Below are positions 245 through 10,879 of a stretch of 64,000 bases of DNA, piece by piece; the stretch's first letter is position 1; the number at the start of each line of letters is the position of its first letter. Where the stretch lies: IMG/VR virus record IMGVR_UViG_3300044712_000786, positions 138,705-202,704 of that record. The stretch is one strand, 5' to 3'. The translations under genes and the position numbers were made by a program. The stretch is from a virus. Taxonomy: Duplodnaviria; Caudoviricetes. The notes under the pieces are model-generated. The model was not told the DNA's origin. It made no database searches and saw only the letters and a program-made list of their open reading frames with translations.

Positions 245-556
245 CTATTGTGCGCTAAAATCTTTTATTACTGGAACGGTCCAAGATAGTGGTTCTTCTA
301 CTCCAGTAGTAGAGTTAGTAACCAAGAGCGTATAGAACTTCGTTTCAGATAAGTTTAATCTAATCTGGTTACTCTTTGTAGTCGCCACTAAAGGCCAAGC
401 TGAATAAGACGTTGAATTAGGGACGAATTCCCTAATATTAAACGAAATAGCGTTTGACGGAGTGGGATACTGCCACTTGAACAAACAGGGCTTAAGGGTG
501 CCTTGAGCAAAAACACTAAAGGCAATCAAGCTTACGACTAGCATCATTTTTTTCAT
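245..556 (-). CDS. secreted beta-rich (FN3-like) protein
   Basis: Signal peptide MKKMMLVVSLIAFSVFAQ; ATG lies 4 nt after a tRNA CCA, so start moved from the ORF-track call. Confidence 0.6.
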   Translation of the reverse strand: MKKMMLVVSLIAFSVFAQGTLKPCLFKWQYPTPSNAISFNIREFVPNSTSYSAWPLVATTKSNQIRLNLSETKFYTLLVTNSTTGVEEPLSWTVPVIKDFSAQ

Positions 557-560
557 AAAT

Positions 561-635
561 TGGTACCCTCGGATGGACTTACACCACCAACGTCTCGCTA
601 ATCGGGCGAGCATTCTATTTTTGAATTACGAGGGC
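561..635 (-). tRNA. trnI: tRNA-Ile(GAT), C33
   Basis: Acceptor GCCCTCG/CGAGGGT-A-CCA; anticodon arm CTCGC-CCGATTA-GCGAG; T loop TGTAAGT. Confidence 0.85.
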
Positions 636-641
636 TTAAAT

Positions 642-716
642 TGGTCCCGTCGAGTGGAGTCGCACCACTTTTTCTGGTTCTTCAGACCAGCACACAAACT
701 CTTGTGTTACAACGGG
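642..716 (-). tRNA. trnF: tRNA-Phe(GAA)
   Basis: CCCGTTG/CGACGGG-A-CCA; CTGGT-CTGAAGA-ACCAG; T loop TGCGACT. Confidence 0.88.
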
Positions 717-815
717 TTGTCCTTAAGAACATGGTCAGCGCACATCAGCCTGTCCCCATTTACGCTGTGCGGCGAACGCGAGGATTAGGTAACTACTTAC
801 ATGCTCTTAAGAAAT

Positions 816-890
816 TGGTAGCCCTATCGGAACTTGCATCCGATTTCTCTGGTTGAAAGCCAGAACTCCTACTACATAGAGGATAGGGCC
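816..890 (-). tRNA. trnE: tRNA-Glu(TTC)
   Basis: GGCCCTA/TAGGGCT-A-CCA; TCTGG-CTTTCAA-CCAGA. Confidence 0.88.
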
Positions 891-986
891 ATAATGTCCT
901 TAATTGCTAGTATAGGTCGCTCTCCTTACTAACTATCAGCCAGCGAACTTGTTTGCACTGAGTTCTTATGTAATTAAGGACTAAAT

Positions 987-1061
987 TGGTAGCCCTATGC
1001 GGTTACGCTCCGCACCCTCTACCTTGAAAGGGTAGCGACCTGTCTACTAGTCGATAGGGCC
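987..1061 (-). tRNA. trnE: tRNA-Glu(TTC), second copy
   Basis: GGCCCTA/TAGGGCT-A-CCA; CTACC-CTTTCAA-GGTAG; T loop AGCGTAA. Confidence 0.85.
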
Positions 1062-1070
1062 ATTAAATTA

Positions 1071-1313
1071 TCATGGAACAAATGAAGGAGATTCTCCTTC
1101 AGCTAAAATAATGTTGCTAGGAAAAACTGGTTCTTCTGGCGTCTTAACTATTTTCAACATAATAGGTTCGCCAATATTCGGGCATTTAGCCCAATGCGTC
1201 CATTCATCTTGAATTCTAGTTAGTTTCTTAAATTCCAAATTAGTATGGTCTCCGCCGCATCTTGCACAAGTACGCACGGTAACTACCATATTATCCGCTT
1301 CTTCTATTTTCAT
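1071..1313 (-). CDS. hypothetical protein, possible zinc ribbon
   Basis: CARC...H...C motif; ATG 4 nt after tRNA CCA. Confidence 0.65.
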   Translation of the reverse strand: MKIEEADNMVVTVRTCARCGGDHTNLEFKKLTRIQDEWTHWAKCPNIGEPIMLKIVKTPEEPVFPSNIILAEGESPSFVP

Positions 1314-1317
1314 AAAT

Positions 1318-1396
1318 TGGTGCAAGCGGTGACAGTTGCAGTCACAGGAATATTCTGGTTAAGAGCCAGTTGCCCCTCTACTGTAGCTTCGCTTGC
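1318..1396 (-). tRNA. trnK: tRNA-Lys(CTT)
   Basis: GCAAGCG/CGCTTGC-A-CCA; CTGG-CTCTTAA-CCAG. Confidence 0.85.
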
Positions 1397-1404
1397 GAAA
1401 TTGT

Positions 1405-8369: not shown

Positions 8370-8560
8370 AGACCAGAACGGTTGTCTTGAAACCACTTAA
8401 TAATCTGTATAACTTGAGGATTCTCGGAGTCCACACAATCAGGTAAGATACCTTGAGCTATAAGGAACCCCATAGAGCCCTTGCAATCTTCTTTGGAAGG
8501 AAAAGCCCCAACGAAGTCCTTAGTCGTTTCTTCTATTACCTGTTCTTGCAATGATTTCAT
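8366..8560 (-). CDS. hypothetical protein
   Basis: ORF track. Confidence 0.6.
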   Translation of the reverse strand: MKSLQEQVIEETTKDFVGAFPSKEDCKGSMGFLIAQGILPDCVDSENPQVIQIIKWFQDNRSGL

Positions 8561-8567
8561 ATTAAAT

Positions 8568-8635
8568 TGGTCGCCCTTGCGGGTCTCCCGCTTCTCCGCT
8601 CAATAGCGGTATCCTTAATTTAGACGATTGGGCGA
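8568..8635 (-). pseudogene. degenerate tRNA-like element
   Basis: CCA end and D arm present, but T loop reduced to AGA and anticodon loop to 4-6 nt. Confidence 0.55.
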
Positions 8636-8664
8636 TTAAATTGGTTTAGCGCTCTCCCATAAAT

Positions 8665-8732
8665 TGGAGCCCCATCGGATATTGCAATCCGCACGCTTGT
8701 TTACCGAACAAGACTAGGCACTTGCACAGGGC
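8665..8732 (-). tRNA. tRNA-Thr(GGT)-like with reduced D arm
   Basis: GCCCTGT/ATGGGGC-T-CCA; CTTGT-TCGGTAA-ACAAG; T arm CGGAT-TGCAAT-ATCCG. Confidence 0.6.
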
Positions 8733-9026
8733 TTACATAAACATTTTTCCTATAAGTCTAATTTCTAAAATACTCACATGGATAGTATTTCTAATATCAG
8801 GTTGAACCATCAAGAAACGGCCTAAATGAAAAGAGGGTTCATCATAGAATCTGCTAATTTTATCCCAAAGTTGTGGAACAATGCACTTAATATTTAAAGA
8901 TTTCATTTTTTATAGGGCTACCCAAAACTGATATATATAAAGGTAATCTAATATCAATTACTTCCCTAAGATGAACATAGATTATTCTAGGCAGTTGAAA
9001 ACATGAAGTAGTAAGACTGACCTTTT

Positions 9027-10316
9027 TCATTTATTCAACTCAAATCCATGAATCTTAAACCTATGTTGAACTTCATCCCAAACCGCATTCAATACAGCGG
9101 GGTCTTCATGAACTTTCCCGTTATGAACATCAGGATGAATAGCCTTAATTCTCTCCATGTATTTTTCCTTAGCCAGCTTTAAAACATCTTTATGTTCCAT
9201 TGGACGGCTCCAAAAACGATGACGCTTGTTAGGCCCCGCCCGAAGTCTCCCCTGAATCGTCTTTCCATTCCTGCCATACATATGGCTAGGCTGGTTCATA
9301 TCGTTCTTTTTCAGTCCTAAGTATCTGAGCATCATGGTAATACTGGCAGTCTTGGGATTAATCTTATTAACTTCTATCGGTTTTTCATCATCCCCGTATT
9401 CCTTACTTTCCTTTTTCTTGAAGGATTCTACGGCAACCGAATCAGAAAGCTTGCTTTTCCTAATAGACTCGATATATTCACCTAAAGACTTAATAGAGTC
9501 TTGAGCGTCATCTATGGCAGACTTCATTTCTTGGAGAGAATCTATAGGAGCCGTTTCGAACATAGCTTCGAATTTTTTGGCATCTACAGATAAAAGATTA
9601 TCGAGAAATGCATTCGTTTTTATTAAAAACCTCTTAATAGAATACGTCCCATTAAATAGACGAAGCCTATTTGTCTTATCAGCGTCAACGCGAATGTCCT
9701 TCTCTCTAACTGTCACCGCTATTAATTTTCTCGCCTCATCAATAGAACATCGATTTGTGCTAATAGTGTTAGCAAGTTTTACTTGTTCTTCTTTGGGAAT
9801 ACCCACGAGTAAAGAGCAAATATAATAACTAAGCCGATTTCCTTCGGAAACCATAGGGCCAGCCAACTTTTGAACATCAGGCTCCAAAGTAAGAATTTTA
9901 GCGACTAAACACACCCAACTTTGAGACCTACCTAATTTTTCTCCGATTTCGCGCTGGCCTACCTCTAACTCTAGAAGGTGCTCGATAGATTGGGCAACCT
10001 CTAGGGGGGTAAGAGTATCTCTTTGTAAATTCGTAGTAAGAGACAAGAATAACTGCTCTACTTCCGTTTCTACACGTTTTACGACAGCATCTATATTCTT
10101 GTAACCTAGCTCCTTACATGCGGCAAGACGCTTCTTTCCGTCAATTAATTCGAAAAATTCTCCTTCGTCATCTATAGGTTTTACTATGATAGGAACATTC
10201 AAACCATATTCATCTATGCTGTGTATCAATCCATTTAGAGAATCCTGATTAATGAATTGGCAAGGATTATTTGCAAATTGGCGAATGTTATCGATTTGGA
10301 TAGACTTGATGTCCAT
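9027..10316 (-). CDS. ParB/Spo0J-family protein with C-terminal J-like (HPD) domain
   Basis: GLNVPIIV...LIDGKKRLAACKELG, NLQR, HTH QREIGEKLGRSQSWV; C-terminal KYMERIKAIHPD. Confidence 0.8.
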   Translation of the reverse strand: MDIKSIQIDNIRQFANNPCQFINQDSLNGLIHSIDEYGLNVPIIVKPIDDEGEFFELIDGKKRLAACKELGYKNIDAVVKRVETEVEQLFLSLTTNLQRDTLTPLEVAQSIEHLLELEVGQREIGEKLGRSQSWVCLVAKILTLEPDVQKLAGPMVSEGNRLSYYICSLLVGIPKEEQVKLANTISTNRCSIDEARKLIAVTVREKDIRVDADKTNRLRLFNGTYSIKRFLIKTNAFLDNLLSVDAKKFEAMFETAPIDSLQEMKSAIDDAQDSIKSLGEYIESIRKSKLSDSVAVESFKKKESKEYGDDEKPIEVNKINPKTASITMMLRYLGLKKNDMNQPSHMYGRNGKTIQGRLRAGPNKRHRFWSRPMEHKDVLKLAKEKYMERIKAIHPDVHNGKVHEDPAVLNAVWDEVQHRFKIHGFELNK

Positions 10317-10358
10317 TGTTTAAAAATATCAGAAATTTTACGGAACACAAGGAAAAAT

Positions 10359-10436
10359 TGGTGCGGTACGTCGGACTTGCACCGACCTTATTTCAGTTTG
10401 GAAGACTGACGCCATAACTATCTAGGCGACTACCGC
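10359..10436 (-). tRNA. trnG: tRNA-Gly(TCC)
   Basis: TCAGT-CTTCCAA-ACTGA; GCGGTA/TACCGC-A-CCA. Confidence 0.87.
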
Positions 10437-10443
10437 ATTAAAT

Positions 10444-10517
10444 TGGTAGGGCATTTCGGTAACGCTCCGAGACACTAACTTTGTAGGAGTTAGTCAACAC
10501 CTTGGTTGCCATGCCCT
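10444..10517 (-). tRNA. trnV: tRNA-Val(TAC), C33
   Basis: AGGGCAT/ATGCCCT-A-CCA; TAACT-CCTACAA-AGTTA; T loop AGCGTTA. Confidence 0.75.
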
Positions 10518-10800
10518 AATGTAAATCAAAAGAAAAATAGGCTTTAGAACCAACTTCTTTATAAGCCTCTATTGGAAGAAAGTAAACGCCCAACAATTTA
10601 GCAATAACTAAGCCTAAGTCTTTCTTATTGACTCTAAAACAAAAGGATTGATTATCATTAGTGCGTTCATTCCAATCTACGAATTCTAGCGATGGAATTC
10701 TTGCTAAGCATCTTTTTATATCAGAGTGACATCCGCCCCATCCATAATCACAACCATCACTCCAACTATCTAACTTATAATCAGATTTAAATACTTTCAT
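10516..10800 (-). CDS. hypothetical protein
   Basis: Start MKVFKSDY lies 3 nt after tRNA CCA. Confidence 0.65.
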   Translation of the reverse strand: MKVFKSDYKLDSWSDGCDYGWGGCHSDIKRCLARIPSLEFVDWNERTNDNQSFCFRVNKKDLGLVIAKLLGVYFLPIEAYKEVGSKAYFSFDLH

Positions 10801-10803
10801 AAA

Positions 10804-10879
10804 TGGTATCCCCGACTGGACTCCCACCAGTAATCTTCTCCTTAGAAGGGAGTGGCTTTAGTAATTTAGCTACGGGGAC
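10804..10879 (-). tRNA. trnR: tRNA-Arg(TCT)
   Basis: GTCCCCG/CGGGGAT-A-CCA; CTCC-CTTCTAA-GGAG. Confidence 0.87.

Follow-up and report, generated by a model that had tools for sequence, protein, structure and literature searches.

tRNA punctuation is textbook knowledge for mitochondria, where it was reportedly described by Ojala, Montoya and Attardi in 1981 (a model cited by PMC4633059), and promoter-made leaderless mRNAs are known from the Thermus phage phiYS40. Other systems close to the one considered here are the tRNA region of phage T5 (NC_005859), the RNase E-dependent maturation of enterobacterial tRNAs (PMC5222698; PMC4681348), and leaderless mRNAs made either by promoters, as in Caulobacter, mycobacteria and lambda cI, or by MazF cleavage, whose product is translated (PMC5001579). 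Here, we describe a junction at which an open reading frame (ORF) begins 3 to 7 nucleotides (nt) behind the encoded CCA of a tRNA, in a tRNA array of the virus record IMGVR_UViG_3300044712_000786 (Duplodnaviria; Caudoviricetes). The window, that is, the whole stretch of DNA analyzed, covers positions 138,705 to 202,704 of the record, the final 64 kb of a 202,704-bp sequence with a repeated end, and has a GC content of 39%. All coordinates are window positions, junction ORFs are named by the position of their ATG, and the junction features all lie on the minus strand.

The window contains ten copies of the word CCAWTTTATG, always on the minus strand and between 554 and 8667, where 0.47 are expected and 100 shuffles gave at most 2. 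All ten CCAs close a tRNA or tRNA-like fold: those at 563, 1936, 2736 and 6059 are tRNA ends by ARAGORN or Rfam, and those at 1320, 4244, 5392, 6808, 2201 and 8667 are tRNA or tRNA-like ends by relaxed ARAGORN, a custom detector or folding. Within the window, nine ORFs of 58 to 105 codons start at exactly CCA+4, together with ORF 10800 at +3 and ORF 8560 at +7; to the left of the window, the same array holds four more +4 junctions (one with the spacer CTAT) and one +3 junction. Using Rfam, relaxed ARAGORN, the custom detector and folding, we collected 41 CCA-ended tRNA or tRNA-like ends genome-wide, and an ORF of at least 55 codons follows at +4 in 13 of these, at +3 in 2 and at +7 in 1, with ATG as the start codon in all 16. 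Given a WTTT trailer, an ORF stands behind 12 of 31 ends, against a background of 0.6% (binomial test conditioned on the trailer, P = 4e-19). What few other offsets there are belong to frames that read through tRNAs, to promoter-led starts, or to Met codons within the ORFs already counted. The junction is real and occurs well above chance.

An earlier reading made from the sequence alone (here, the sequence-only reading) had claimed at least ten ORFs at 4 nt. Its ATG coordinates are exact and nine of these ORFs in the window hold up, but the ATG at 8660 is not a gene: it opens only M-G-E-R-stop and overlaps a 17-nt tRNA-like remnant. The distances that it gave for 10800 (3 nt) and 8560 (7 nt) are both correct. 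It had also stated that there is no room for a Shine-Dalgarno (SD) site, which is true of the spacer; SD-like words at 556 and 5385 sit in the paired acceptor strand and are not enriched.

Several observations bear on whether the junction ORFs are genes. Codon scores, given per codon by a model that learned from the long genes of the phage, are positive in all 16 (+0.04 to +0.23), compared with a median of 0.11 for promoter-led small genes and a 95th percentile of 0.025 for off-frame ORFs. Candidate in-frame starts farther upstream, running through the tRNAs (613 and 2888/2900), were rejected on their negative codon scores. Two junction ORFs (5385 and 6052) belong to PHROG families. For the 6052 gene, homologues were compared at 25 viral loci; most of them have the same initial Met, or one placed a few residues upstream, and they are SD-led or coupled there, with no tRNA. 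The first eight residues of the 5385 product recur in a homologue. Within the 5385 family, which has 907 representatives, one member elsewhere follows a tRNA with a 10-nt spacer containing AAGGA. In predicted structure, the junction starts resemble promoter-led leaderless starts and are more open than coding sequence from gene interiors (P = 0.013), with median minimum free energies over the first 35 nt of -2.5 kcal/mol for junction, -2.35 for promoter-led and -3.5 for internal coding sequence. Judging from codon usage and homologues, the junction ORFs are real genes that start at the junction AUG. Homologues of two of them share the starting Met in settings without a tRNA. Unrelated genes were thus fitted, each on its own, to the CCA-ATG junction.

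The spacer itself is the kind of trailer seen behind most tRNAs. N-W-T-T follows the CCA at 34 of the 41 ends, against a background of 6%, regardless of whether an ORF or a tRNA comes next, or neither. In a set of 1,357 further viral tRNAs, trailer positions 1 to 4 hold W in 84%, U in 67%, U in 74% and U in 62%. In Escherichia coli, the standard route is an endonucleolytic cut a few bases behind the CCA, then exonuclease trimming (PMC4681348), and the RNase E consensus in enterobacterial tRNA precursors is RN↓WUU (PMC5222698; the arrow marks the cut). A76 and the trailer together read A-W↓U-U-U, which fits this consensus, itself enterobacterial and perhaps not that of the host. The trailer therefore carries an RNase E-type motif, and we infer a cut within it. 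As in the enterobacterial pathway, this cut would fall a few bases behind the CCA in a U-rich trailer and be followed by trimming; there, however, the downstream product is usually spacer, tRNA or small RNA, whereas here it would be a translatable mRNA, and the host may use another nuclease. To the left of the window, the ORF behind a tRNA-Cys is coupled to a gene (L388:4077-4658, minus strand) for an exonuclease of the RNase T/DEDD family (Pfam PF00929, E = 1e-8), a candidate trimmer of tRNA 3' ends. Three coupled genes with minus-strand starts at 241, 7861 and 8099 are separated from the preceding stop by just 3 to 4 nt, TTT or TTTT; since TAG-TTT is another match to RN↓WUU, these starts might be freed by the same cut.

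Elsewhere in the genome, promoter positions point to leaderless translation. There are 87 matches to a TTGAC-type promoter, 47 of them no more than 30 nt ahead of an ORF; the ATG follows the -10 box by 5 to 7 nt in 43 of these 47 pairs (6 nt in 33), which would put the ATG at +1 if start sites obey the usual promoter geometry. A second motif, GTGTAA(T/A/C), lies 7 to 9 nt before 17 starts, and SD words stand ahead of 19 of the 123 long genes (background, 9%). The six ORFs that begin 19 to 57 nt behind a tRNA all carry a promoter-like motif at the usual distance, with leaderless or near-leaderless geometry; in two of them the -35 box is weak and was identified by eye. Three of the six lie outside the window and three within it. 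ORF 10316 has a sigma70-like promoter, with a weak -35 box read by eye, 6 nt before the ATG of a ParB-like gene (42-nt gap behind a tRNA-Gly, 10314..10361, minus). At ORF 7472, GTGTAAT precedes the ATG of a PD-(D/E)XK nuclease gene by 7 nt (57-nt gap behind a tRNA-Thr, 7470..7532, minus), and at ORF 3483, a TTGACT-16-TAAGAT promoter ends 5 nt before the ATG (43-nt gap behind a tRNA-Gln, 3481..3529, minus). The promoterless ORFs behind tRNAs, in contrast, all stand at 3 to 7 nt: none of the 16 has a leader of SD length, and no promoter-like motif was found at the 16 junction starts. This dichotomy is our strongest argument; it suggests that first cistrons in this phage need a 5'-proximal AUG, which a tRNA can supply.

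The T5 tRNA region provides a useful comparison. There too, small ORFs, tRNA-like RNAs and tRNAs with encoded CCA are arrayed on the minus strand, with A/U-rich trailers, internal promoters and ORFs that overlap the next tRNA. Its 12 tRNA-to-ORF gaps, however, measure 13 to 34 nt (median, 20) and hold an SD word in 10 of 12 cases, whereas the gaps described here measure 3 to 7 nt and hold none. An SD spacer of the T5 type (13 to 35 nt) is found at 0 of 16 junction ORFs and, by length, at 12 of 12 in T5.

We favor, with a probability of roughly 0.6, an explanation by tRNA punctuation, in which the phage relies on leaderless translation and cleavage at tRNA 3' ends would release near-leaderless, monophosphorylated mRNAs. 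The array would be transcribed as long tRNA-ORF precursors, and a host single-strand, U/A-specific endonuclease of the RNase E type would cut the CCA-WUUU trailer, most simply at A76-W↓UUU. The tRNA would be left with one extra base and trimmed back to CCA, while the downstream RNA would carry a 5' monophosphate, about three U residues and then the AUG, and would be read via the leaderless route of the host. The spacer would be 4 nt because this is the shortest trailer that contains the whole cleavage motif and because leaderless initiation weakens with every base added to the leader. Genes of diverse origin would have been fitted to the junction because a first cistron needs its AUG at or near a 5' end, whether a promoter or a tRNA provides that end. 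Expression would probably be constitutive and modest, with the small proteins coupled to tRNA maturation rather than switched.

The sequence-only reading had offered two alternatives, and the first, tRNA 3' processing into near-leaderless mRNAs, appears best supported, given the leaderless genome, the promoters at the more distant ORFs and the match of the spacer to a minimal RNase E-type site. Recruitment of ribosomes by the tRNA fold, its second alternative, finds no support, as 13 different tRNAs, some of them degenerate, share one spacer. The further proposal that tRNA maturation gates expression goes too far: because the trailer is common to most tRNAs, with or without an ORF, cleavage is probably constitutive, and regulation is unsupported.

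The likeness to mitochondrial punctuation lies in the interleaving of tRNAs and ORFs on one strand, an AUG a few bases from the would-be 5' end, the absence of SD sites, and some stops that run into the next tRNA. In contrast to mitochondria, the phage has bacterial ribosomes, many internal promoters and only small accessory genes at the junctions, and cleavage is here deduced from DNA. The array does not match cleavage of RNase Z type, which acts at the discriminator of tRNA genes lacking CCA: every junction has an encoded CCA and a trailer, pointing to an RNase E-type enzyme instead. The phage arrangement would therefore work like mitochondrial punctuation without being a member of that system. 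With promoter-made leaderless mRNAs it shares the AUG as the only start codon, at or near the 5' end, and an unstructured start. It would differ from these and from the MazF products in that the 5' end comes from housekeeping tRNA processing, bears a monophosphate and about three extra bases, and serves 16 genes at once.

To what extent does this arrangement extend beyond one genome? The phage fragment IMG/VR 3300035696_000018 (G001; L163-L164), which is unrelated, has seven +4 and two +5 junctions among ~48 tRNAs, with promoters mostly 9 nt from the ATG, and IMG/VR 3300050821_001527 combines +3, +4 and +5 junctions with leaderless promoters. Overlaps between a stop and the next tRNA occur twice in the former and several times in T5. 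We collected 162 viral loci by junction patterns, a sample biased to such phages even after removal of the pattern matches themselves; with these removed, spacer lengths peak at 4 and 5 nt (15 and 16 cases), against 1 to 9 cases at other lengths, and SD words accompany 4 of 52 short spacers versus 51 of 159 longer ones. In the stretch of mycobacteriophage Bxz1 that was viewed, no annotated coding sequence stands close behind a tRNA. CCA-WTTT-ATG also stands ahead of bacterial genes, in Akkermansia, many Pelagibacteraceae and others (L249:1811-1820, L204:1104-1113, L220, L203, L301). From their sequences, we take the Akkermansia protein to be IspF, those of the Pelagibacteraceae to be an NDUFS4-like protein, an acyl-coenzyme A ligase and a 3-hydroxyacyl-coenzyme A dehydrogenase, and one in another bacterial genome to be trigger factor. 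Among 102 bacterial matches to the junction pattern at tRNAs, 38 open at least 50 codons and most open no ORF. The unpublished genome G170 carries no weight in any conclusion drawn here.

A number of findings weigh against tRNA punctuation. It is known that 5'-monophosphate ends accelerate decay by RNase E. The spacers CTAT, TCT and TTT miss the full RNase E motif, and the coupled starts at 241, 7861 and 8099 have their 3 to 4 U/A-rich bases after a stop, without any tRNA. The stops of ORFs 2194, 2729 and 10800 either lie within the next tRNA or straddle its 5' end (2000-2009, 2412-2430 and 10516-10518), so that RNase P would clip the stop and leave a nonstop mRNA; translation would therefore have to precede 5' maturation of that tRNA. 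The alphaproteobacterial pairing of a tRNA-Pro gene with its neighbor is old; SAR11 leaves 4 nt between the two, other lineages 20 to 90 nt. Because the SAR11 gap has shrunk from this longer range, compaction alone can reach the junction geometry, and the 4-nt spacing is derived and can be an end point of streamlining. A 4-nt spacer is not conserved for tRNA-Pro/ispF or tRNA-Pro/NDUFS4-like pairs across the Verrucomicrobiota or Alphaproteobacteria samples. Finally, in Caulobacter reporters, initiation on a 3-nt leader reaches only about one-sixth of that on mRNA with no leader at all (0.45 x i^-0.91; bioRxiv 10.1101/2020.05.06.081141), and this inefficiency would make the arrangement suboptimal.

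Some of these findings lead to the main rival explanation, which we consider unlikely but deserving of attention: WUUU would be the indispensable part of the trailer, the ATG would have been brought up to it by deletions, and initiation would be internal and independent of an SD, on the uncut precursor, at the eight single-stranded bases (N73, CCA and WUUU) that separate acceptor stem and AUG, so that processing starts decay rather than translation. Such a compaction floor would account for SAR11 and Akkermansia, which reach the identical junction from longer spacers in relatives, and for the stops overlapping the next tRNA, which imply some translation before full processing. It also agrees with the poor translation of short leaders in Caulobacter, with a phage that is SD-poor throughout and with bases -8 to -1 being partly unpaired in predicted precursors (0.22 to 0.90). 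Deletion toward a floor should, however, leave a tail of intermediates, and no promoterless leader of 8 to 18 nt is seen on first cistrons behind tRNAs despite noncoding slack. Bases -20 to -9 are paired tRNA, and a paired region upstream of the AUG hinders 30S loading. We also considered TTT-ATG as a genome-wide start context and rejected it: TTT precedes just 5 of the 123 long-gene starts, near the ~3% background, which leaves this explanation without a general start context.

The remaining explanations fare worse. If both tRNAs and ORFs in the array follow a short TTTAT or TTTAAT word, recombination at CCA-WTTT-(A)TG might swap cassettes with no translational selection on spacing. Several tRNAs with an initial G do have TTTAAT or TTTAT ahead of them, the remnant at 8642-8660 bears the same junction, and the junction ORFs are mutually unrelated with homologues in non-tRNA settings. 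We nonetheless find such shuffling improbable, because 7 to 10 bases of identity is little for recombination, the spacers CTAT and TCT conserve length rather than the word, the same spacing recurs in unrelated phages and ahead of bacterial core genes, and translation of the ORFs is left unexplained. That the upstream tRNA fold recruits or positions the ribosome, in the manner of an internal ribosome entry site (IRES), would draw on the 8-nt distance between acceptor helix and AUG, which resembles SD-to-AUG spacing. tRNA mimics do function in some eukaryotic viral IRESs (PMC4810235). The upstream RNAs share only acceptor stem, T arm and CCA, however, the tRNAs without an ORF look alike, and no bacterial precedent was found in the literature searched, making this route very improbable. 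Least probable, in our estimation, are signals hidden within the tRNA. GGAG (5385) and GAGG (556) lie at SD distance inside the acceptor strand, and two T loops read GTGTAA, recalling the GTGTAAT motif of the phage through a GTGYAA word. But anti-SD pairing is no stronger for junction tRNAs than for other tRNAs (P = 0.61), is zero at 7 of 16, and would involve a strand already base-paired within the stem; the ATG is ~22 nt away from the T-loop word rather than the 7 to 9 nt usual for the motif, and a -10 box 6 nt upstream would need to end on C74. An acceptor-strand SD and a tRNA-internal promoter were accordingly rejected as general explanations on this pairing and distance evidence.

A stronger form of tRNA punctuation can also be proposed, though we hold it only tentatively and think it rather doubtful. 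In this form, CCA-WUUU-AUG would be a self-contained expression junction whose cutting is strictly needed for translation, in a phage and in scattered streamlined bacteria such as SAR11; degenerate tRNAs and tRNA-like RNAs would be kept as punctuation, and RNase P, cutting the next tRNA later on, would end the life of an mRNA by removing its stop.

The individual junctions, read along the minus strand from the left, are as follows. A tRNA-Ile(GAT) with encoded CCA (561..635; Rfam tRNA, 43 bits) is separated by ATTT (557-560) from a 103-amino-acid ORF (245..556; CCA+4; codon score, +0.05) with a hydrophobic, signal-peptide-like N terminus and no match in Pfam or PHROG. A tRNA-Lys(CTT)-like RNA with an atypical T arm (1318..1396; spacer ATTT) precedes an 80-amino-acid ORF at CCA+4 (1071..1313; +0.17). 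Behind tRNA-Gln(CTG) (1934..2009; ATTT), whose bases 8 to 10 double as the stop of ORF 2194, stands a 75-amino-acid ORF at CCA+4 (1702..1929) with a weak C-terminal zinc-finger match (zf-CHCC, E = 0.003, below the curated cutoff). ORF 2194 itself (2000..2194; 64 amino acids; CCA+4; +0.15), with its stop within that tRNA, follows a 157-nt tRNA-like RNA (2199..2355; ATTT) that by folding has a 7-bp acceptor stem, a T arm and CCA. The middle of this RNA consists of several unrelated non-tRNA hairpins, it has no Rfam match, and it is the upstream element of a +4 junction. tRNA-Glu(CTC) (2734..2809; TTTT) leads into a 105-amino-acid ORF at CCA+4 (2412..2729), whose stop lies within a D-armless tRNA-Thr at 2363-2430. 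The next two tRNAs, tRNA-Trp(CCA) (4242..4316; by relaxed ARAGORN; ATTT) and a second, divergent tRNA-Asn(GTT) (5390..5463; ATTT), stand before ORFs at CCA+4 of 68 amino acids (4031..4237; +0.20) and 64 amino acids (5191..5385; PHROG 26220, a large family), respectively. tRNA-Arg(TCG) (6057..6132; TTTT) is followed at CCA+4 by a 58-amino-acid ORF of PHROG 18620 (5876..6052), whose homologues share the starting Met. A tRNA-Met/Ile2(CAT) with an imperfect acceptor stem (6806..6878; relaxed ARAGORN and folding; ATTT) precedes a 93-amino-acid ORF at CCA+4 (6520..6801), for which the start agrees with the database gene call and no homologue of similar length was found.

Farther along the minus strand, a degenerate tRNA-like cloverleaf (8568..8634; fold z score, -3.3) has the 7-nt spacer ATTTAAT before a 64-amino-acid ORF at CCA+7 (8366..8560) that leads a coupled run of four genes. 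Next to it is the remnant (8642..8660), 17 nt ending in CCA at 8642-8658 and overlapped by the 4-codon frame at 8660, the G of whose ATG is the first base of the remnant. In this remnant, the start of one tRNA is seemingly joined to the CCA end of another, and it has its own trailer, ATTTAAT. At the next higher positions lies a D-armless tRNA-Thr(GGT)-like RNA (8665..8732; trailer ATTTAT). tRNA-Arg(TCT) (10804..10879) has the 3-nt spacer TTT and a 94-amino-acid ORF at CCA+3 (10516..10800), whose stop straddles the 5' end of a tRNA-Val (10444-10517). The mRNA 3' end would lie at or nearly at the next tRNA for five ORFs (1313, 2194, 2729, 4237 and 10800); the others reach promoters or coupled genes. 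To the left of the window, a 94-nt tRNA with a GCA anticodon, a long variable arm and a canonical T loop, missed by default ARAGORN (L388:2178-2271, minus), is followed at +4, after the spacer CTAT, by an 84-amino-acid ORF.

The array as a whole occupies the minus strand from ~12,260 leftwards beyond the window edge. Default ARAGORN finds 14 tRNAs in the window, a low count that arises because most T loops are GTGCAA-like rather than GTTCGA. Most tRNAs between 561 and 12259 (minus) have G at position 55 of the T loop (TGCAAAT, AGCGTTA, GGCAGCA), and G55-type T loops recur across many other uncultured phage arrays. The two D-armless tRNA-Thr-like RNAs, at 2363-2430 (CGT) and 8665-8732 (GGT), are both 68 nt long, with CCTAGT in place of the D arm and with acceptor stem, T arm and CCA kept; they resemble D-armless mitochondrial tRNAs. 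Right behind tRNA trailers lie closed-stem RNAs of 70 to 95 nt (720-812, 3608-3684 and 11940-12012, minus) with no Rfam match, the last having the appearance of a CCA-less degenerate tRNA. The record is present in rhizosphere metagenomes, and the phage genome, at ~203 kb, is complete. Contigs from three further runs are identical over the stretches covered (this DNA may itself derive from X1 and X2), and across the four DNA runs compared no strain variation or joints appeared at the junctions. A search for close relatives of the tRNA array found none, and the phage GMP reductase gene, examined for host assignment, gave none.

In the literature searched, mostly without subscription journals, we found no description of tRNA punctuation or of a CCA-ATG junction in phages or free-living bacteria. 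The mechanism proposed here is read from DNA alone, and its organellar precedent is well known. This genome offers a clean test case, with 16 junctions, promoter-led neighbors as an internal contrast and a spacer that predicts the cut to the base, and because the junction also stands ahead of what we take to be core genes in culturable organisms (ispF in Akkermansia and the NDUFS4-like gene in SAR11), 5'-end mapping is feasible there. The tRNA-CCA-WUUU-AUG unit might also serve as a compact part for polycistronic expression. If the proposed mechanism is true, bacterial ribosomes would routinely initiate on monophosphorylated processing products with a 2- to 4-nt leader, and the small genes behind phage tRNAs, doubted by gene finders for want of an SD, would be real.

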